DNA of 49,434 nt, from positions 203,008-252,441 of the forward strand of contig JAUWYL010000001.1 of the NCBI GenBank assembly GCA_030615855.1. The letters are read 5' to 3'. Of the stretch, positions 6,219 through 44,223 are shown piece by piece; the stretch's first letter is position 1; every line of letters starts with the position of its first letter. The position numbers and the translations under genes were made by a program. The notes beneath the pieces are model-generated. The model was not told the DNA's origin. It made no database searches and worked only from the letters and a program-made list of their open reading frames with translations. The DNA comes from a bacterium. GTDB taxonomy: Bacteria > UBP18 > UBA7526.

Positions 6219-6566
6219 ATGACGCGGAGGAGAGCTCAGCGGGCAGGAAGACTTATTCAGGAAGAGATTTCAAAGATCATTCAGAGGGAATTAAAGGATC
6301 CACGGATTGGATTTGTTACTATTACTGGTGTAGATGTTACTGATGATCTCCGCTATGCCAAGGTATTCATCACTGTTTTAAAAAGAGAGGAAAGGGAGAG
6401 GACTCTGGAAGGCCTGGAGCATGCCAAGGGATTTATTCGTAGGGAGATCGGACAGAGAATAAAAATGAAGTTCACTCCAGAGATTGAGTTTAGATTCGAT
6501 GAAACTATAGAGCGTGGAGCACACATAGAGGAAGTAATAAGAAAGATTAAGGAGAAGGAGAAGTGA
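6219..6566 (+). CDS. rbfA: Ribosome-binding factor A
   Basis: KDPRIGFVTITGVDVTDDLRYAKVF, TPEIEFRFD. Confidence 0.97.
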   Translation: MTRRRAQRAGRLIQEEISKIIQRELKDPRIGFVTITGVDVTDDLRYAKVFITVLKREERERTLEGLEHAKGFIRREIGQRIKMKFTPEIEFRFDETIERGAHIEEVIRKIKEKEK

Positions 6567-6567
6567 A

Positions 6568-6676
6568 TCCCGTTAGATGCTGGTCTTTTAATGAAGTGGA
6601 AATAAATGATACATTTAGGATCGCTATTAAAGATATTAGAAAAAGCTATATAACAATATTTGGGAGTCTAACGGGA
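6568..6676. mobile_element. Miniature TIR element (MITE-like), copy 1
   Basis: tcccgttaga ... tctaacggga perfect 10-bp IR, flanked by TGAA direct repeats at 6564-6567 and 6677-6680. Confidence 0.8.
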
Positions 6677-7653
6677 TGAAGGAACTAAAAAAGATTGTCG
6701 AGGTTATCAGAGAGAATAAAAGTTTCTTTATTACTTCTCACATCAGGCCAGATGGGGATTCCATCGGCTCTCAACTTGCCCTGAAGAGGATACTGGAAAG
6801 GTTAGGAAAGGAAGTAATCATCACCAATCATGATCCGGCCCCTAAAATCTACGATTTTCTTCCCGGAAAAGAGAGCATCAAGCAAGAACTACCTAAGAAT
6901 AGAGAGTTCGATGTGGCCTTTATTCTGGATAGCCCAGAGCTCTCTCGTCTGGTGAGCACCGCAGAGATAATCGAGAAAGCAAAGGTCATCGTAAATATCG
7001 ATCACCATCTGGGGAATGAAAAGTTTGGAAAGTATAACTATGTTGATACTGAGGCTTCTGCCGTGGGAGAAGAGATATATGAACTGACAAGAGTAATGGG
7101 GTTTGAGATAGATAGGGAGATTGCCTTATGCCTCTATGTGGGCATCTTTACAGATACCGGTTCCTTCCGGCAGTCAAATACTACCCCTCGTACCCATGAG
7201 ATCGTGGCCCACCTCATGAAGATAGGAGATTTAAAGCCTGCCCAGATCACCCATCAGATATACGGGACCCAGCTTCCTTCTGCCATAAAGTTATTGAGCA
7301 TGACTTTGGATACCTTGGAGAGGAGCGGAGACGGCAGGATAGCTTGGATGACCATTACCGACGAGATGTTCAAAGAGACCGGAACCACCAAGGCGGAGAC
7401 CGAGAACTTCATCAACTATGTTCGTTCTGTGAAAGGAAGCGAGGTGGCCATTCTATTCACTGAGCTTGCTAAGGATGAGGTAAAGGTCAGTTTCCGCTCC
7501 AAGTCTAGTGCCGACGTTAATAGTATAGCCAAAATATTTGGAGGTGGAGGACATCTTCGCGCTTCTGCCTGCACTATAAAGGGAGATTTGGAGGAGGCAA
7601 AGAGGAAGGTGCTGGTTGAGGTAGAGAAGAGACTAAAGAAGGTTTACGGTTGA
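6676..7653 (+). CDS. nrnA: DHH/DHHA1 bifunctional oligoribonuclease / PAP phosphatase
   Basis: HIRPDGDSIGS, IDHH, TDTGSF, GGGGH motifs; typical rbfA-nrnA-truB context. Confidence 0.93.
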   Translation: MKELKKIVEVIRENKSFFITSHIRPDGDSIGSQLALKRILERLGKEVIITNHDPAPKIYDFLPGKESIKQELPKNREFDVAFILDSPELSRLVSTAEIIEKAKVIVNIDHHLGNEKFGKYNYVDTEASAVGEEIYELTRVMGFEIDREIALCLYVGIFTDTGSFRQSNTTPRTHEIVAHLMKIGDLKPAQITHQIYGTQLPSAIKLLSMTLDTLERSGDGRIAWMTITDEMFKETGTTKAETENFINYVRSVKGSEVAILFTELAKDEVKVSFRSKSSADVNSIAKIFGGGGHLRASACTIKGDLEEAKRKVLVEVEKRLKKVYG

Positions 7654-26071: not shown

Positions 26072-27513
26072 AGAAATATCGTATCCTTTTTCTGGTCCTG
26101 CTCTTATCGCTTACCATATTTCGTCTCTTCTATATTAAAAGCTTTAACCTTTGTCCAGATGAGGCCTATTACTGGGATTGGTCAAGGAATCCCTCCCTCT
26201 CTTACTACACTCATCCCCCTATGGTGGCCTACATTATCCATATCTCTACTCTATTAGGAGGGGATAGCGAGTTTTGGATAAGGTTGGGGGCAGTGCCCCT
26301 CAGTTTAGGAGTGAGTATTCTGGTTTATCTTTTGACTCGAGATATCTTCAAAAGCGAAAGGATTGCCTTCTTCTCCGTTCTTCTTTTGAATATTACCTTA
26401 GGATTTGCCATTGGGGCGCTTATCATTACTCCTGATGTTCCCCTGATCTTCTTCTGGATGCTTTCCCTCTACTTTCTCTATAAGGCAAGTGAAGGAGAGA
26501 ATAGGGGCTGGTGGTATCCTTTAGGAGTAGCAGTTGGTCTAGGTCTTTTAAGTAAGTATACTATGGTTCTCTTCTTTCCCTGTGCGCTACTCTTTCTGCT
26601 ATTATCTAGTGAGAACAGGAGATGGTTCAAGTGTAAGGAGCCCTATCTTGCTTTAGCCATTGCTCTTTTGATCTTTACTCCAGTAATCGTCTGGAATTAC
26701 CAGCACAGCTGGGTCTCTTTTACCAAGCAGCTTGTTCATGGTCTGGGAAGAAAAGGTAATCCCTTTCTTAACCTGGGGATTTATTTTGGTTCCCAATTAG
26801 GGGTAGTCTCCCCCTTTCTCTTCTTGGGACTTCTCTATAGCATGGTGAAGGGCCTTCGCCTCGGGATTAAAGAGAGAAGAGACGACATTTTACTCCTATT
26901 CTGCTTTTCTCTACCCATCTTCCTTTTCTTCCTTCTGACCAGTCTGCGTTCCAAGGTGGAGGCCAACTGGCCGGCCATGAGTTATCTCTCAGCAATGGTC
27001 CTCTTAAGTGGCTTTCTCTTTAAAATAGAGAAGAAGAGAAAGAGAATCTTTTTAGTCCTTTTGATCTTTGTCACTAGCCTCTCATTTACCATGTTGGCCT
27101 ACTCCTTTCCCCTCCTCCCCCCTAAAATAAAGCCCATTAATCAGCTCTATGGTTGGAAAGAGTTGGGAAGAGAAGTGAGCAGGCTCAAGGAGAAGATGCC
27201 TGAAGATAGTTTCATCTTTGCTCCTCGACATCAGTTAGCGGCTGAGATCGCTTTCTATACAGATGAGAAATACCAGACCTACGAGATAGATTCCCAGTAT
27301 GGAAAAGATTACTGGGGAAATATCGACTTTCTGAAAGGAAAAGACGCCCTCTTTGTGACCCATAGCGATTATGATAAACTACCCTTCGTTGCCTCTCATT
27401 TCACCTTGCTAAGGAAAGAAAAGGATATCTCCATCTTCCGCAAAGGAGAGAAGATAAAGGCCTTCTCCATCTATCGCTGTCATAACTACCTGGGGGGTCT
27501 ATTCGATGACTAA
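26068..27513 (+). CDS. ArnT/PMT-like (GT83/GT39) membrane glycosyltransferase
   Basis: DEAYYWDWS...YYTHPPMVA, ITPD.PL, GLGLLSKYT, multiple TM helices. Confidence 0.85.
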   Translation: MKKYRILFLVLLLSLTIFRLFYIKSFNLCPDEAYYWDWSRNPSLSYYTHPPMVAYIIHISTLLGGDSEFWIRLGAVPLSLGVSILVYLLTRDIFKSERIAFFSVLLLNITLGFAIGALIITPDVPLIFFWMLSLYFLYKASEGENRGWWYPLGVAVGLGLLSKYTMVLFFPCALLFLLLSSENRRWFKCKEPYLALAIALLIFTPVIVWNYQHSWVSFTKQLVHGLGRKGNPFLNLGIYFGSQLGVVSPFLFLGLLYSMVKGLRLGIKERRDDILLLFCFSLPIFLFFLLTSLRSKVEANWPAMSYLSAMVLLSGFLFKIEKKRKRIFLVLLIFVTSLSFTMLAYSFPLLPPKIKPINQLYGWKELGREVSRLKEKMPEDSFIFAPRHQLAAEIAFYTDEKYQTYEIDSQYGKDYWGNIDFLKGKDALFVTHSDYDKLPFVASHFTLLRKEKDISIFRKGEKIKAFSIYRCHNYLGGLFDD

Positions 27514-28624
27514 GGAATTTGTCAGATCGGACTGCCGCTACTTCCTTGGAGATCGTCCCTGTAGATATCATAAAAAAGAAGGAGTCAAATGCTCTGACTG
27601 TAGATATCATGATCCAATAAAGTTGAGAACCCTCATTATAAAGCTGGGGGCCATGGGTGATGTCTTAAGGACTACTCCTATCTTAGAGGCCTTAAAAGGA
27701 AAGTATAGAGGGAGTAAGATCACCTGGGTTGTGGATGAGGAGTCAAAAGAGTTACTTGAGAATAATCCCTATATCGATGGTATCCTTTCCTATGGCCCGG
27801 AGGCCCTCTCGCACTTACTAGTTGAAGAATTCGATCTGGTCATCAATCTTGATTCCTTACCGAGGAGCGCCTGCCTTGCTTCCCTGGCTAAAGGGAAGAA
27901 GAAATTGGGGTTTGGACTCGATAAAAAAGAGTCTGTCTTTCCTTTCAATAAGGAGGCAGAGGAATGGTTCCGGATGGGGATAGATGACGATTTAAAGAGA
28001 AAGAATAAGAAGACCTATCAGGAAATCGTCTTTAAAATAGCAGGACTTAGATTTAAGAAAGAGAAATTAGTTGTCAATCTGAGAGAAAGAGAGATAGATT
28101 TTGCTAATAAGTTTGCCAAGAAACATAATCTGGGTGGGAAGAAAATTATTGGATTGGCCACGGGTGCAGGAGGAAGGTGGGAACTGAAGAAATGGACCAT
28201 AGAAGGCTATTTAAGACTCATTAAGAAAATAGATAAAGAAATAAAGGATGCCAAGATACTATTATTTGGTGAAAGAGAAGAGATAGGGAGAAATAGAGAG
28301 ATTATGGAACGGTCAAAAGTTCCTCTCATTAATACCGGCCATGAGAATACCTTGAGAGGATTTTTGTCGCTTTTAAACCTTTGCGATTTGGTGGTAACTG
28401 GTGATACCCTGGCGATGCATGCTGCAGTTGCTTTGAGAAAAAAGGTAGTTGTTCTCTTTGGCCCTACATCCTCTGCCGAGGTTGAACTTTATAAAAGAGG
28501 GAAGAAAATTATACCCGATATGGACTGCCTCTCTTGCTATAAAGAAACCTGTGACAAGCATCCTAACTGCATGGAAAGCATCAGCCCCGATATTGTATTT
28601 CAAGCAGTGAAAAAACTCCTATGA
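27506..28624 (+). CDS. GT9 heptosyltransferase-like protein with Cys-rich N-terminus
   Basis: IIKLGAMGDVLRTTP, VTGDTLAMHAAVAL, LFGPT, C-terminal Cys cluster. Confidence 0.88.
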   Translation: MTKEFVRSDCRYFLGDRPCRYHKKEGVKCSDCRYHDPIKLRTLIIKLGAMGDVLRTTPILEALKGKYRGSKITWVVDEESKELLENNPYIDGILSYGPEALSHLLVEEFDLVINLDSLPRSACLASLAKGKKKLGFGLDKKESVFPFNKEAEEWFRMGIDDDLKRKNKKTYQEIVFKIAGLRFKKEKLVVNLREREIDFANKFAKKHNLGGKKIIGLATGAGGRWELKKWTIEGYLRLIKKIDKEIKDAKILLFGEREEIGRNREIMERSKVPLINTGHENTLRGFLSLLNLCDLVVTGDTLAMHAAVALRKKVVVLFGPTSSAEVELYKRGKKIIPDMDCLSCYKETCDKHPNCMESISPDIVFQAVKKLL

Positions 28625-29322
28625 AGACTATGGTCATCATCCCCACCTATAATGAGAGGGAGAACATCGGCCCCTTGCTTGATGAAATTATGAACCTTAA
28701 AGAAAATATCGAGGCTCTGGTGGTAGATGATAACTCTCCGGATGGCACTTGGAGAATAGTAGGAAATTATTCTAAGAAAAACCCTAGAGTTCATCTCTTA
28801 CGGAGAACCTCTGAGAGAGGACGGGGCCTGGCAGGAATAGCAGGATTTAAGTATGCTTTGGAGAATAAAGCAGATTATGTCATTGAGATGGATGGTGATC
28901 TTTCCCACAATCCAAAGTATATCCCAGAGTTCTTGAAAAAGATTGAGGATTGCGATGTAGTCATCGGCTCTCGTCTTCTTCCCGGTGGAGGGGAGGTGGG
29001 AAGAGGGTTTTTAAGGCGTCTAATCACCAGGCTGGCTGCCATCTACGTTAGGATTTTATTAGGATTCAAGGTTACAGATCCTACCTCCGGCTACCGTTGT
29101 TATCGGGGAGAAGTCCTAAGGGCTATAGATATTAAAAGCCTAAAGGCCAGGGATCCTTTCCTCCTCTCTGAGATGCTCCTCAGGTGCTATAAGAAAAGCT
29201 ATAGAATTAAAGAAATCCCCATCCTCTTTCAAAATCGGAAATCCGGTGCTTCTAAGATCGGCTGGAAAATCTTGATAACCTATCTCTTCAAGGTCCTAAA
29301 GTTGAGAGTTAGAGGGAAGTGA
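28621..29322 (+). CDS. Polyprenol monophosphate glycosyltransferase (GT2, Dpm1-like)
   Basis: IIPTYNERENI, VDDNSPDGT, EMDGDLSH, DPTSGYR. Confidence 0.9.
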   Translation: MKTMVIIPTYNERENIGPLLDEIMNLKENIEALVVDDNSPDGTWRIVGNYSKKNPRVHLLRRTSERGRGLAGIAGFKYALENKADYVIEMDGDLSHNPKYIPEFLKKIEDCDVVIGSRLLPGGGEVGRGFLRRLITRLAAIYVRILLGFKVTDPTSGYRCYRGEVLRAIDIKSLKARDPFLLSEMLLRCYKKSYRIKEIPILFQNRKSGASKIGWKILITYLFKVLKLRVRGK

Positions 29323-30494
29323 GTATCCCGATCTTAATGTATCATCATGTAAACCCCGTTAGAAGTCCTCGTTGCAAACGAGGCATCCGTCCCCTTCGGG
29401 GTCGGATTACTTCTAACGGGGTAAATGAACTCCCAGATAGTTTTACTATTTCTCCAGATGATTTCCAGAGTCAAATGGAGTACTTAGCAAAAAAAAATTA
29501 CCAGACCCTCTTTCTGGATGAGTTAATTAATTCTTTAAAAGAGAGAAAAGAGAAGAGAAAGGTAGCCCTTACCTTTGATGATGGTTATCTTGATAACTGG
29601 GTCTATGCCTACCCCATCCTGAAGAAGTATAATCTAAGAGCAACCGTCTTTGTCATTACCTCTCGCATTAAAGAGAAGCCTATCTCCTATCGCCCTAACT
29701 TAGAAAATCTCTGGAAGAGGAAAGTTAAGAAAGAAGGGCTTCCCAGGATTTCTAATCACTATCAGAGTAATCTAAGATGTGTCAGGAATCTTGAAGGTTC
29801 AGATGATCATATTACCTGGGAAGAAGCGAAGAAGATGTCTCGAAGCGGTCTGATAGATATCCAGTCCCACAGTTATTTACACAGCTACTGTTATGTAAGT
29901 GATAAGATAGTCGATTATTATCGAGGACATAAGTGGCGCACGGGCTGGCTTACAGATGGAGATACAAGATTAGGCATCCCGATATATGAGGATAAGCCAG
30001 CCCTTGCTGGGCAAAGATATTTTGATGATCAGGACTTAAGAAATAGACTGGCAGAATACGTTTCCCAAAGAGGGGAAGGAAAATTCTTTGAAAAGGAGGA
30101 TTGGAAGAAGGAATTGGATGGGATAGTAGATGATTATCGGGTGCAAAATGAACTAAAAGATAATTATGAAACTTTAAAAGAGAGAGGGAAGCGAGTCAAA
30201 AGCGAGTTATTACTATCTAAAAATATTGTCGAAGAAAAACTAAATAAAGAATGTAACTTCATCGCCTGGCCAGGAGGGGCATACGATAGTTATTTAGTTA
30301 AGTGGGCTAGGGAGTGTGGCTATCAAGGAGCAGTAACTACCCAGCCAGGAGCGAATACTTCTAATACCAACCCTATGTATCTCAAGAGGTTTGAGATTAA
30401 GAGAAGGGATCTTGGCTGGTTTAAGAAAAGGCTTTTCATTTACTCCCATAATTTCACGGCCCGATTTTACCCCAAGATAAAGGGGTTATTTTAA
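29319..30494 (+). CDS. Polysaccharide deacetylase (CE4) carrying a 24-aa in-frame insertion
   Basis: IPILMYHHV, LTFDDGYLDN, IQSHSYLH, AWPGG motifs. Confidence 0.9.
   Translation: MSIPILMYHHVNPVRSPRCKRGIRPLRGRITSNGVNELPDSFTISPDDFQSQMEYLAKKNYQTLFLDELINSLKERKEKRKVALTFDDGYLDNWVYAYPILKKYNLRATVFVITSRIKEKPISYRPNLENLWKRKVKKEGLPRISNHYQSNLRCVRNLEGSDDHITWEEAKKMSRSGLIDIQSHSYLHSYCYVSDKIVDYYRGHKWRTGWLTDGDTRLGIPIYEDKPALAGQRYFDDQDLRNRLAEYVSQRGEGKFFEKEDWKKELDGIVDDYRVQNELKDNYETLKERGKRVKSELLLSKNIVEEKLNKECNFIAWPGGAYDSYLVKWARECGYQGAVTTQPGANTSNTNPMYLKRFEIKRRDLGWFKKRLFIYSHNFTARFYPKIKGLF
29354..29421. mobile_element. Miniature TIR element, copy inserted in frame in the deacetylase
   Basis: ccccgttagaagt ... acttctaacgggg perfect 13-bp IR; TAAA direct repeats at 29350-29353 and 29422-29425; 68+4 = 72 nt. 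Confidence 0.9.
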
Positions 30495-30543
30495 AGCGTT
30501 ACAATGTAGGATGAGAGAATTGTTTTTGAAAAGGTGAAAATAA

Positions 30544-31386
30544 ATGAGCCAGCCTGTCTATGTCAAATGTAATCTGTGCCACAGGGATGAGACGCGTCCT
30601 TTAATAAAGGTTGATGGCTTCTCCTGGGTGAGCTGTCAGCATTGTGGTCTAATCTATCTTGATCCCCGCCCGAAGCCGGCGAAAGAATTGAACCCTGCTA
30701 TCGTGGAACCTGGTGCCGATTATTACATCAGAAAGGGATATTCTCGAGACAAGCAGAACTACTATAAAAAATATCTTAAGAAATTCGAAGGATATAGGAA
30801 GACTAATCGTTTACTGGAGATTGGTTGCGCTTCGGGAGGCTTTCTCTATGCTGCCCGGGATTGTGGTTGGCAGGTGAAAGGAATAGAATATTTTGAACCC
30901 ACAGCGCGATATGGCCGGGATCATCATAATTTAGATATTATCACTGGCTCTTTGTTAGAAATAGAGCTGCCCAAAGAACATTTTGACTTAGTCATTATGA
31001 ACATGGTTATTGAGCATCTTGAGGATCCCGTAGGAACACTCTTCAAGATTAACCGGCTTCTGCGACCGAAAGGGGTGGTTTATATTCATACCCCAAACTA
31101 TGACAGCCTCACTCTAAAGCTATTTCCAGCATATCCCAAATTTTTCCCCAAGGGCCACTTCTACTTCTTTACCGTAAGAACCCTTAAAAAAGCATTAAAA
31201 AAGACTGGATTTCAGATAGTCTGGAAGAAGACCCGGGGGTTTGAATTTCCCAAGGAAAAGGGCGGGGTTCCTTTCTTAAAGCGACAGTCCTTGAGGTTGC
31301 TAACAGACCTGGTTTCTCCTGTGGTTAATATTCTGGGCAAAGGAGATCGGGTAAGGGTGCTTGCCGAGAAGGGGATAGTTTCTTGA
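30544..31386 (+). CDS. Class I SAM-dependent methyltransferase with N-terminal CxxC pairs
   Basis: CNLC...CQHCGL, LLEIGCASGGF, VIEHLEDP, IHTPNY. Confidence 0.88.
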   Translation: MSQPVYVKCNLCHRDETRPLIKVDGFSWVSCQHCGLIYLDPRPKPAKELNPAIVEPGADYYIRKGYSRDKQNYYKKYLKKFEGYRKTNRLLEIGCASGGFLYAARDCGWQVKGIEYFEPTARYGRDHHNLDIITGSLLEIELPKEHFDLVIMNMVIEHLEDPVGTLFKINRLLRPKGVVYIHTPNYDSLTLKLFPAYPKFFPKGHFYFFTVRTLKKALKKTGFQIVWKKTRGFEFPKEKGGVPFLKRQSLRLLTDLVSPVVNILGKGDRVRVLAEKGIVS

Positions 31387-43845: not shown

Positions 43846-43905
43846 GCAGATGGACAGGTGGGAGAATGAGCAAGTAAAAAAGGAGGAAAAAGGGGAAGTT
43901 ATGAA

Positions 43906-44017
43906 TCCCGTTAGACCTTTCTAAAGTCTAACGGGATTAAATCGGAAAATTTTGGAATATGCCAAGTAAGTTATCTTTTTATACTCTTTACTCGTAAACT
44001 AAGGAGGTCTAACGGGA
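43906..44017. mobile_element. Miniature TIR element, copy upstream of the DUF4254 N-half gene
   Basis: tcccgttagacc ... ggtctaacggga perfect 12-bp IR; TGAA direct repeats at 43902-43905 and 44018-44021; extra right end at 43926-43936. Confidence 0.85.
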
Positions 44018-44223
44018 TGAAAAAGACATTTGCTCAACTGGTGAATGAGTTAACAAAGGTAAATATTGCATTATGGCATGAGGAAGATAAGGCGAGAAGT
44101 GAAGATGATAAAGTTGTGGCTCAGGCGAAGAGAGAAATTGATAGATTGAATCAGAGAAGGAACGATCTCATTGAGGCTATTGATGAATATGCTATTACCT
44201 TGAGCAAGGGGAGAAATAAATAA
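44017..44223 (+). CDS. DUF4254-like protein, N-terminal half
   Basis: LWHEEDKAR...[19 protein letters not shown] resembles the DUF4254 N-region (recognised from memory). Confidence 0.7.

Follow-up and report, generated by a model that had tools for sequence, protein, structure and literature searches.

A hairpin-forming mobile element inserted in frame in a bacterial polysaccharide deacetylase gene belongs to a family with shared ends in many phyla

Introduction

Rickettsia palindromic elements (RPEs) are small palindromic repeats that lie in frame in unrelated housekeeping open reading frames (ORFs), where the encoded peptide is thought to be tolerated, and for which no transposase is known (PMC10969869, PMC3733652). 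RPE-1 measures about 100-150 bp and is limited to Rickettsia, a CGTC tag marks RPE-4 and RPE-6, and REP sequences (repetitive extragenic palindromes) are 20-40-nt GC-rich hairpins, often paired or clustered, some of which lie within ORFs and encode 20-30 residues, with a single-strand hairpin as the presumed substrate (PMC3733652). For MITEs, the miniature transposable elements with inverted repeats, effects on the expression of neighboring genes and occasional in-frame fusions with ORFs are on record in the same two sources (PMC10969869, PMC3733652). Here we compare these systems with a 68-nt element that lies in frame in a polysaccharide deacetylase gene, in a 49,434-nt stretch of bacterial DNA that we call the window (assembly GCA_030615855.1, contig JAUWYL010000001.1, positions 203,008 to 252,441 of the forward strand; GTDB lineage UBP18, UBA7526). 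An earlier reading made from the letters alone, the sequence-only reading, had proposed that a palindromic element had been inserted there with a 4-nt duplication, that it added 24 residues, that it could fold as a three-way junction and that it was analogous to RPEs, and it had left open whether the insert is translated, excised from DNA or removed from RNA.

Results

An insertion with exact empty sites in relatives

The 68-nt sequence is an inserted copy of a mobile element: it is flanked by a duplicated TAAA, and its site is empty in relatives. The genome that carries it (G000; 1.375 Mb in 45 contigs, 93.6% complete) is one of six from its phylum in our collection, all of one family and three genera and 53-94% complete; handles beginning with G, C and L denote genomes, contigs and loci. 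Orthologues of the deacetylase, aligned from residue 34 on, are found in 5/5 sister genomes at 79-80% identity. At the insertion site their DNA reads CAT CAY GTG AAY GA and their protein YHHVNEL(K/R)D, and in all five the gap is exactly 72 nt, or 24 aa, as the sequence-only reading had expected of deacetylase homologues. The host ORF itself translates as MYHHVN-PVRSPRCKRGIRPLRGRITSNGVN-ELPD, with the insert as 24 codons in frame, and taking out the 72 nt gives HHVNEL, the reading of all five sister orthologues. The insertion, the TAAA duplication and the in-frame addition of 24 residues are thus borne out. The deacetylase has 1683 homologues at E<=1e-20, and 24 of the 27 homologue N-termini examined, among 120 listed, are empty at the insert site.

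Run X1, possibly the source sample itself, yielded a diverged low-depth contig with an empty site, and run X5, from another study, a contig that covers 29263-29471 with three differences and keeps the insert; since the X5 contig carries it, the insertion is real and stable in that lineage and is not an assembly artefact. Among the contigs compared, which drop rare variants, no joint skips exactly 72 nt. A second in-ORF copy, at C21:8470-8537 in a 559-aa YjeF_N-type ORF, also has an exact empty site in 5/5 sister genomes. For the window copy at 6568-6676 there is no alignable empty site, the sister genomes having a different spacer there.

A fold kept by covariation

The three-way junction drawn in the sequence-only reading is reproduced identically by the predicted RNA fold, in which a closing stem of 13 bp bears the two hairpins and a single base stays unpaired at either of two junctions, at -44.8 kcal/mol (z = -8.65; 0/200 shuffles equally stable). 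We aligned 28 three-way-junction elements, 25 from the phylum and three from metagenome-assembled genomes (MAGs) of Omnitrophota, Patescibacteria and Parcubacteria. Pairing is present in 94.8% of the alignment cells, and 15/27 pairs are changed on both sides; the covariation score is 0.298, compared with 0.107 for shuffles (0/500 reach the observed score) and no more than 0.115 when the partners were slid. Alignment artefacts in the 65-nt rows alone account for two broken pairs in hairpin A. Pairing has been kept during sequence drift, including at closing-stem positions 11-13, and the alignment argues for a folded single strand as the form probably under selection. A cmscan search of Rfam at E<=10 gave three noise matches, all under the gathering scores (best E 0.86), and no ribozyme or intron family. 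The features of the locus, together with two further family members in the window, are listed in Table 1.

Table 1. Host gene, element parts and other family members in the window (positions of the window; the arrow in the target motif stands before the duplicated bases)
Feature	Position	Strand	Remarks
Host gene, polysaccharide deacetylase (PF01522)	29319..30494	+	391 aa including the insert; Pfam E 1.2e-23
Left target-site duplication	29350..29353	.	TAAA; base before is G, fitting R↓T(A/G)AA
Hairpin mobile element	29354..29421	+	68 nt, three-way-junction class
Left terminal inverted repeat	29354..29366	+	13 nt, CCCCGTTAGAAGT; first 10 nt are the family-defining end
Inner hairpin A	29367..29383	+	7-bp stem, 3-nt loop; 17-nt module
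Inner hairpin B	29385..29407	+	long 23-nt variant; single unpaired bases 29384 and 29408 on either side
Right terminal inverted repeat	29409..29421	+	13 nt, exact reverse complement of the left CCCCGTTAGAAGT
Right target-site duplication	29422..29425	.	TAAA
Second window member	6568..6676	+	109 nt, T...A-ended, AT-rich; TGAA at 6564-6567 and 6677-6680
Third window member	43906..44017	+	112 nt, starts with a complete 31-nt mini hairpin (43906-43936); TGAA at 43902-43905 and 44018-44021

One copy of a family that spans phyla

Beyond anything in the sequence-only reading, the element is one copy of a many-phyla family that has 28-nt minimal members, a 3n+2 length rule and copies at start codons. 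The family is defined by its ends only, YCCCGTTAGA...TCTAACGGGR, which are perfect inverted repeats, the interiors being otherwise unrelated and the lengths ranging from 28-nt hairpins up to about 160 nt. In its own genome there are two further 68-nt copies, the one at C21:8470-8537 and another at C22:2335-2402, each in frame in an ORF, and 16 loci with the 10-nt ends at no more than one mismatch and unrelated interiors of 31-134 nt, of which 11 have an exact 4-nt duplication. Exact-end copies number 8, 16, 6, 9, 38 and 5 in the six genomes of the phylum (gaps 20-140 nt) and 16, 16, 50, 5 and 16 in five genomes of other phyla, many of the latter bare 28-32-nt hairpins; the reversed-pattern control gave 0 in each. 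A public scan of one genome per species, with ends 40-70 nt apart, found at least 122 loci, compared with about 17 expected in random sequence by hand arithmetic. Among the matches listed, carriers by MAG label include Patescibacteria (many lineages), Planctomycetota, Omnitrophota, Cloacimonadota, Deltaproteobacteria, Nitrospirota, Nitrospinota, KSB1, Bacteroidales and Gammaproteobacteria, and the loci hold 125 elements, 55 of them with an exact 4-nt duplication. The mini hairpins of one Omnitrophota genome show exact duplications in 15 of the 20 fetched (TTTA or TAAA; CGCG once). A collection of viral contigs gave just 2 matches.

These counts bear on the reading in which no mobile DNA is involved at all, the 24 residues being ancestral and since lost in other lineages, or the palindrome being due to chance or to faulty assembly. 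Further copies, in genes unrelated to this one, have duplications and empty sites of their own, independent assemblies contain the insert, the gapped end pattern matches once in the window and in 0/100 dinucleotide shuffles of it, and the reversed-pattern controls are 0 in 11/11 genomes; we found nothing that speaks for this reading and give it virtually no weight.

Some interiors are shared as well. A 29-nt mini hairpin with the same loop is found in G000 (C44:68539-68567, one left-arm mismatch; a partial copy at C5:27598) and many times in the Omnitrophota genome G043 (L209, L211, L213, L216, L221, L224), so that here an interior, besides the ends, is common across phyla. Another subfamily, AT-rich and about 107 nt long, has an interior sequence that is conserved between genera at different loci (G004:C72:14248-14354, C170:3566-3672 and, with a decayed left end, G000 C2:14670-14785), and may carry a promoter or a small RNA. 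Nested or tandem arrangements are frequent (L079/L080, L084, L122, L171, G043:C36:16357-16463), with a complete mini hairpin within or abutting a longer member, or with extra solo arms, and suggest insertion of members into one another or capture between arms.

Two whole tRNA genes, in unrelated genomes, lie exactly between family ends: tRNA-Val(cac) at L050:209-317 (G004:C142) and tRNA-Thr(cgt) at L112:901-990, in a Saccharibacteria-labelled MAG, where the acceptor stem is continued directly by the ends. In G000 the orthologous tRNA-Val (C35:8631-8707) is without such flanks, and the intergenic DNA is too diverged from that of G004 to reconstruct the history. A separate repeat family, of short tandem repeats of the ACACGGATA / ACGCAGAT type, lies 3' of several G000 tRNA genes (for example C3:20844, C30:122662, C43:23884, C35:8870 and C45:14691); similar repeats fill the rbfA-nrnA spacer of G002 (L203).

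An asymmetric target and a 4-nt duplication

We pooled 219 non-redundant elements from all the DNA examined, within the phylum and outside it. An exact 4-nt duplication flanks 105 of them, whereas shuffling the flank pairs 2000 times gave 16.4 on average and never more than 28. The duplicated tetranucleotide is TAAA in 46 cases, TGAA in 22, TCAA in 9, CAAA in 5 and others in fewer, and varies among copies within one genome (TAAA, TGAA, TTCA, CTCA and others). The base before the duplication is a purine in 92/105 (G in 61/105), and none is preferred after it. From this spectrum and the preceding purine, the target is R↓T(A/G)AA, which is asymmetric. By hand count, the orientation of the interior is independent of that of the duplication (5 vs 6). 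A link between the tetranucleotide and end bases 11-13, of the kind made by an IS608-like guide, was looked for by eye and not seen.

Element lengths and stop codons fit coding sequence

The GC-rich class has a modular layout: between the two 13-nt ends come first hairpin A (17 or 20 nt) and then hairpin B (17 or 23 nt), each followed by a single base. This layout gives lengths of 62, 65, 68 and 71 nt, always 2 mod 3. With a length of 3n+2 and a 4-nt duplication, whole codons are added and the frame is kept. The TAG and TAA of the ends are confined to one frame per strand, and the other frames read xPVR...SNGx and xPLE...LTG; an element with its duplication therefore adds whole codons, 24 of them here, in two of the three frames per strand. 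Lengths of 2 mod 3 account for 128 of the 219 pooled copies (binomial p 4e-14) and, among GC-rich copies of 55-101 nt, for 35/36 in the phylum and 37/53 in other phyla.

After virtual excision, 13 copies fall within ORFs that extend at least 60 codons to either side; 10 of the 13 are open and in frame, and one of the three exceptions (L028, C23:5269) is really a start-codon insertion. In the Omnitrophota genome the four minis in long ORFs are all 29 or 32 nt, and 0/11 of the minis of 28 or 31 nt lie there. The hosts of in-frame copies are unrelated, among them the deacetylase, the YjeF_N-type ORF, an oxidoreductase ORF and many others in the sister genomes, and both element orientations are open in frame. 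On the question that the sequence-only reading had posed, frame and stop-codon statistics favor translation over excision from DNA or removal from RNA.

The element might instead be removed after transcription or skipped by the ribosome, with the GTA codons at 29349-29351 and 29421-29423 as take-off and landing sites. Matching codons do surround a very stable structure here, and through the duplication such matches arise automatically wherever a copy sits. Under this scheme neither length nor stops should make a difference, whereas the in-ORF copies are open and in frame; at this copy the take-off codon is followed by neither a stop nor a rare codon, and Rfam offers no ribozyme or intron match to support removal. 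We regard skipping or removal as highly improbable.

Copies that rebuild start codons

A second way of fitting into genes is seen where the target is a start codon. In the window, the copy at 6568-6676 separates the stop of an rbfA-like ORF (TGA 6564-6566) from the ATG (6676-6678) of a 325-aa ORF that we read as NrnA-like; the left TGAA preserves the rbfA-like stop, the right TGAA supplies the ATG of the next gene, and GGGAG stands 9 nt before it. At the 43906-44017 copy, AAGGAGG precedes the rebuilt ATG (44017-44019) by 9 nt. Since the last base of the element is G or A and TGAA is the duplication preferred, an insertion into RTGAA restores RTG on the downstream side, while the previous start remains upstream.

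Six copies in G000 rebuild starts in this manner (C2:5509, C12:1735, C23:5269, C26:17751, and the two window copies, C30:209575 and C30:246913), and in all six the downstream protein starts at the rebuilt codon. In the T...A-ended subfamily GGAGG or GGGAG precedes the rebuilt start codon by 9 nt, and 8/45 exact 9-mer end sites in the genome show a Shine-Dalgarno-like motif, the end and a start codon in series. In the phylum 14/66 elements, and in other phyla 23/133, have a rebuilt RTG with 60 or more open codons after it.

Eight gene starts have the order Shine-Dalgarno, TCTAACGGG, RTG (one with an extra A), several of them without a recognizable left arm: C2:47891, C2:14587, C18:21603, C35:76952, C44:67724 and C12:1828 of G000, and 6660-6678 and 44003-44019 of the window. 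The translation initiation regions of these eight TCTAACGGG genes seem to derive from old element copies.

The insert in the deacetylase

In the protein the insert comes right after Y8-H9-H10 and N, which are nearly invariant. As the duplication repeats the V-N codons, the YHHVN motif stays whole. The sequence-only reading had suggested modeling to see whether the insert is a surface loop. In the AlphaFold2 model (64 aligned homologues; mean predicted local distance difference test score, pLDDT, 90; predicted template modeling score 0.88) residues 15-39, the only ones with pLDDT <50, make an unstructured excursion between the first strand and the remaining fold.

The position of the insert raises the possibility that the enzyme was disabled and that the ORF is intact only through recency, as a pseudogene in the making. 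The insertion adjoins a nearly invariant motif, and it is young, because G001 and G002, of the same genus, are without it. Against this, the rest of the protein is 79-82% identical to its orthologues, full length and without a stop; the near-identical strain of run X5 retains both insert and frame; two close homologues from related lineages, P0002 and P0003, are full-length with in-frame inserts at the same site; and the motif itself is left whole. We consider a disabled enzyme quite improbable.

The deacetylase is the third gene of a GT9-GT2-deacetylase row (GT, glycosyltransferase), and the element lies 32 nt into it. Stop and start codons overlap at 28621-28624 and 29319-29322, the latter being the GTG start of the deacetylase and the stop of the GT2 gene upstream. 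A methyltransferase gene comes after the deacetylase, with a 49-nt spacer, and the row of four (window 27506-31386) looks like one operon for a modified glycan.

Different interiors at the same site

At this one deacetylase site three interiors are found, of 24 aa in P0001, 26 aa in P0002 (82% identical) and 22 aa in P0003 (77%), and the end of the P0003 peptide, ...ASFATRTSNGV, is the reverse-strand reading of window hairpin A. The carriers P0001-P0003 are monophyletic in 0/200 bootstrap trees, and P0003 is paired with the empty P0006 (94/95); the homologue tree is nearly star-like, and its strongly supported branches are compatible with one origin. A second case comes from orthologous oxidoreductase ORFs in two genera, in which C22:2335-2402 (L003, 68 nt) and a longer variant with other hairpins (L233, G005:C43) occupy the same codon. 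Repeated insertion, precise loss, and exchange or inversion of the interior in place, through the arms, all fit these same-site variants.

Intragenic invertons are known in which both orientations of a segment occur in one population. By analogy, the 13-bp arms might be recombination sites through which the interior is flipped or swapped in place, producing alternative loop peptides, possibly atop transposition. The three interiors at one site, the P0003 ending (orientations differ between lineages), the absence of a carrier clade together with the P0003-P0006 pairing, and the G005 variant all speak for such exchange, as does the fact that both orientations are open and independent of the orientation of the duplication. 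Two orientations at one locus were, however, not seen in the contigs that were compared; no recombinase is common to the carriers (Resolvase 1/6); the near-star tree is compatible with one origin; and repeated hits on a preferred GTAAA site, or precise loss, give the same pattern. We therefore think that interior exchange is an unlikely account of the locus.

Candidate mobilizing enzymes

Several candidates were set aside. In five carriers from other phyla, PF13701 gave one sub-threshold match, to an IS4-like ORF without family ends. Clustering of 1136 flanking ORFs all-against-all (loci from L020 on) revealed no recurrent protein family, the largest cluster covering 4 loci. No autonomous insertion sequence (IS) with family ends was found, the other genomes having been scanned for end pairs up to about 150 nt apart. 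The sole pair of ends 0.5-3 kb apart examined in G000 (C44:67723-68567) encloses a 186-aa ORF, by eye a HAD-type phosphatase and not a nuclease. The only Resolvase match among the six genomes of the phylum is in G000 itself (L238, C30:183960-184406), where it falls in an open frame of 548 aa some 19 kb upstream of the window; it resembles a large serine recombinase and may belong to an integrated element. The perfect ends and duplications in a genome that is 93.6% complete suggest a recently active enzyme outside the protein models used.

Discussion

Insertion, duplication, empty sites in relatives, family membership and conservation of the fold are all observed at this locus. We think it probable that the 68-nt sequence is a recent copy of a non-autonomous element of the REP, RPE or MITE kind and that it is translated as a disordered loop. 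In the mechanism that we propose, the perfect inverted ends close a hairpin or a three-way junction, and insertion takes place at R↓T(A/G)AA with 4 nt duplicated. Because members as small as 28 nt move and stems covary, the mobile form may be a single strand in its folded state, or at any rate a substrate that depends on structure. A 28-nt unit is probably too short for the usual transpososome to bind it by two double-stranded ends, which, together with the covariation, favors a hairpin substrate. Ribosomes would read the insert along with the rest of the gene, so that the deacetylase gains a disordered loop of 24 residues immediately behind YHHVN.

A number of observations weigh against this account. 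DDE_Tnp_1 (PF01609), Y1_Tnp (PF01797) and DDE_Tnp_1_4 (PF13701) are found in 0/6 genomes of the phylum at their completeness of 53-94%, and rve (PF00665) in 2/6 and Resolvase (PF00239) in 1/6 leave no consistent candidate; Y1 genes are present in 4/5 of the carriers from other phyla, with 0/8 fetched loci having family ends within 1.5 kb. No exact duplication flanks 114/219 copies, and symmetric ends with an asymmetric target are odd for a symmetric DDE complex. Covariation is no proof of a functional fold, because DNA-level processes such as repair can keep the arms of an inverted repeat alike. The tally of in-ORF copies, 43 in frame and 1 off, is descriptive and partly circular, because an open frame belongs to its definition, and translation of the insert is argued from sequence statistics. 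An insert beside Y8-H9-H10 and N may impair the enzyme, and a young insertion need not be tolerated.

It is tempting to go further and to see here a superfamily of 'coding-compatible' elements across phyla, absent from the descriptions that our searches returned, with invariant 10-nt ends and a 28-nt minimal unit, moved on folded single strands by an unrecognized enzyme that is neither a classical DDE transposase nor a REP-associated tyrosine transposase (RAYT), built to fit the room that compact genomes leave, inside ORFs and on start codons, in the latter case often with a Shine-Dalgarno of their own, diversifying protein loops by exchange or inversion of the interior in place, and sometimes carrying tRNA genes as cargo. 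We offer this wider picture tentatively and hold it, as a whole, to be more doubtful than probable. Literature searches by end sequence and by concept, with supplements and non-open journals outside their scope, returned no description of the elements or their ends. PMC3969353 had been a candidate prior description and proved unrelated; other literature matches to the end sequences were primers and unrelated items.

The small, streamlined genomes found among uncultured bacteria are about 90% coding, and a selfish element can persist in them only if it is harmless inside genes. The family shows what a tolerated design looks like: length steps of three, stops in one frame, a duplication that preserves the motif it interrupts, and ends that rebuild a start codon and come with a ribosome-binding site. 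Such elements naturally supply the housekeeping proteins of many phyla with N-terminal extensions and with loop insertions of 20-30 residues. They also lead to annotation errors, through wrongly placed starts and through spurious 'low-complexity' inserts in the proteomes of MAGs. That distant phyla share identical 10-nt ends, with no recognizable transposase, points to a mobilizing activity yet to be found, one that may act on 28-nt hairpins and insert them precisely with a 4-nt stagger.

How, then, does the family compare with described systems? Elements of the piggyBac and IS1380 type have ends starting CC(C) and a 4-nt AT-rich duplication, and piggyBac can excise seamlessly; here PF13701 is found in 0/6 genomes of the phylum, and the target is asymmetric and is not TTAA. 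Palindromes derived from IS200/IS605 have no duplication, insert 3' of a fixed tetra- or pentanucleotide and use a Y1 enzyme, whereas in this family the tetranucleotide varies, a duplication is present and Y1 is found in 0/6. Integron attC sites have the order RYYYAAC ... GTTRRRY and stand in arrays beside intI without duplication; in the present family the order is reversed (GTTAGA ... TCTAAC), and the copies are dispersed within genes with duplicated flanks. The inserts that ribosomes bypass, in T4 gene 60 and as the mitochondrial 'byps' of Magnusiomyces and yeast, break the frame and are skipped. The likeness to them is a mobile GC-rich palindrome in an ORF between matching codons, but the inserts described here keep the frame and lack stops and so, we argue, are read.

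MITEs, including Correia/NEMIS, RUP and ERIC, come nearer, with terminal inverted repeats, target-site duplication, no coding capacity and many copies. At our loci the inverted ends are present, duplication and empty site were found at two loci in 5/5 relatives, and an autonomous IS was not found. MITEs are usually 70-300 bp with 15-30-bp ends, have an identifiable parent IS and are lineage-specific; here no parent IS was found, the smallest units measure 28-32 nt, the interiors bear no relation to one another, and different phyla share the same 10-nt ends. REPs and the paired REPINs share with our elements their size, GC-rich hairpins, clustering and occasional residence in ORFs. They differ in having a GTAG or CGTC tag at one end and Y1 (RAYT) genes, whereas the ends here are CCCCGTTAGA / TCTAACGGGG with T(A/G)AA flanks and no tag, Y1 is found in 0/6 genomes of the phylum, and linked Y1 in 0/8 fetched loci. 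REPs are not known to carry target duplications. The analogy with RPEs drawn in the sequence-only reading holds for residence in frame within ORFs. Going by their descriptions, the two are set apart by the CCCCGTTAGA-type ends, the lack of a CGTC tag, the 28-nt members and the many phyla on our side, and a clear 4-nt duplication, the 3n+2 length rule and start-rebuilding copies are likewise features of the family here. Its closest known kinds are the RPEs and the intragenic REPs, followed by the bacterial MITEs.

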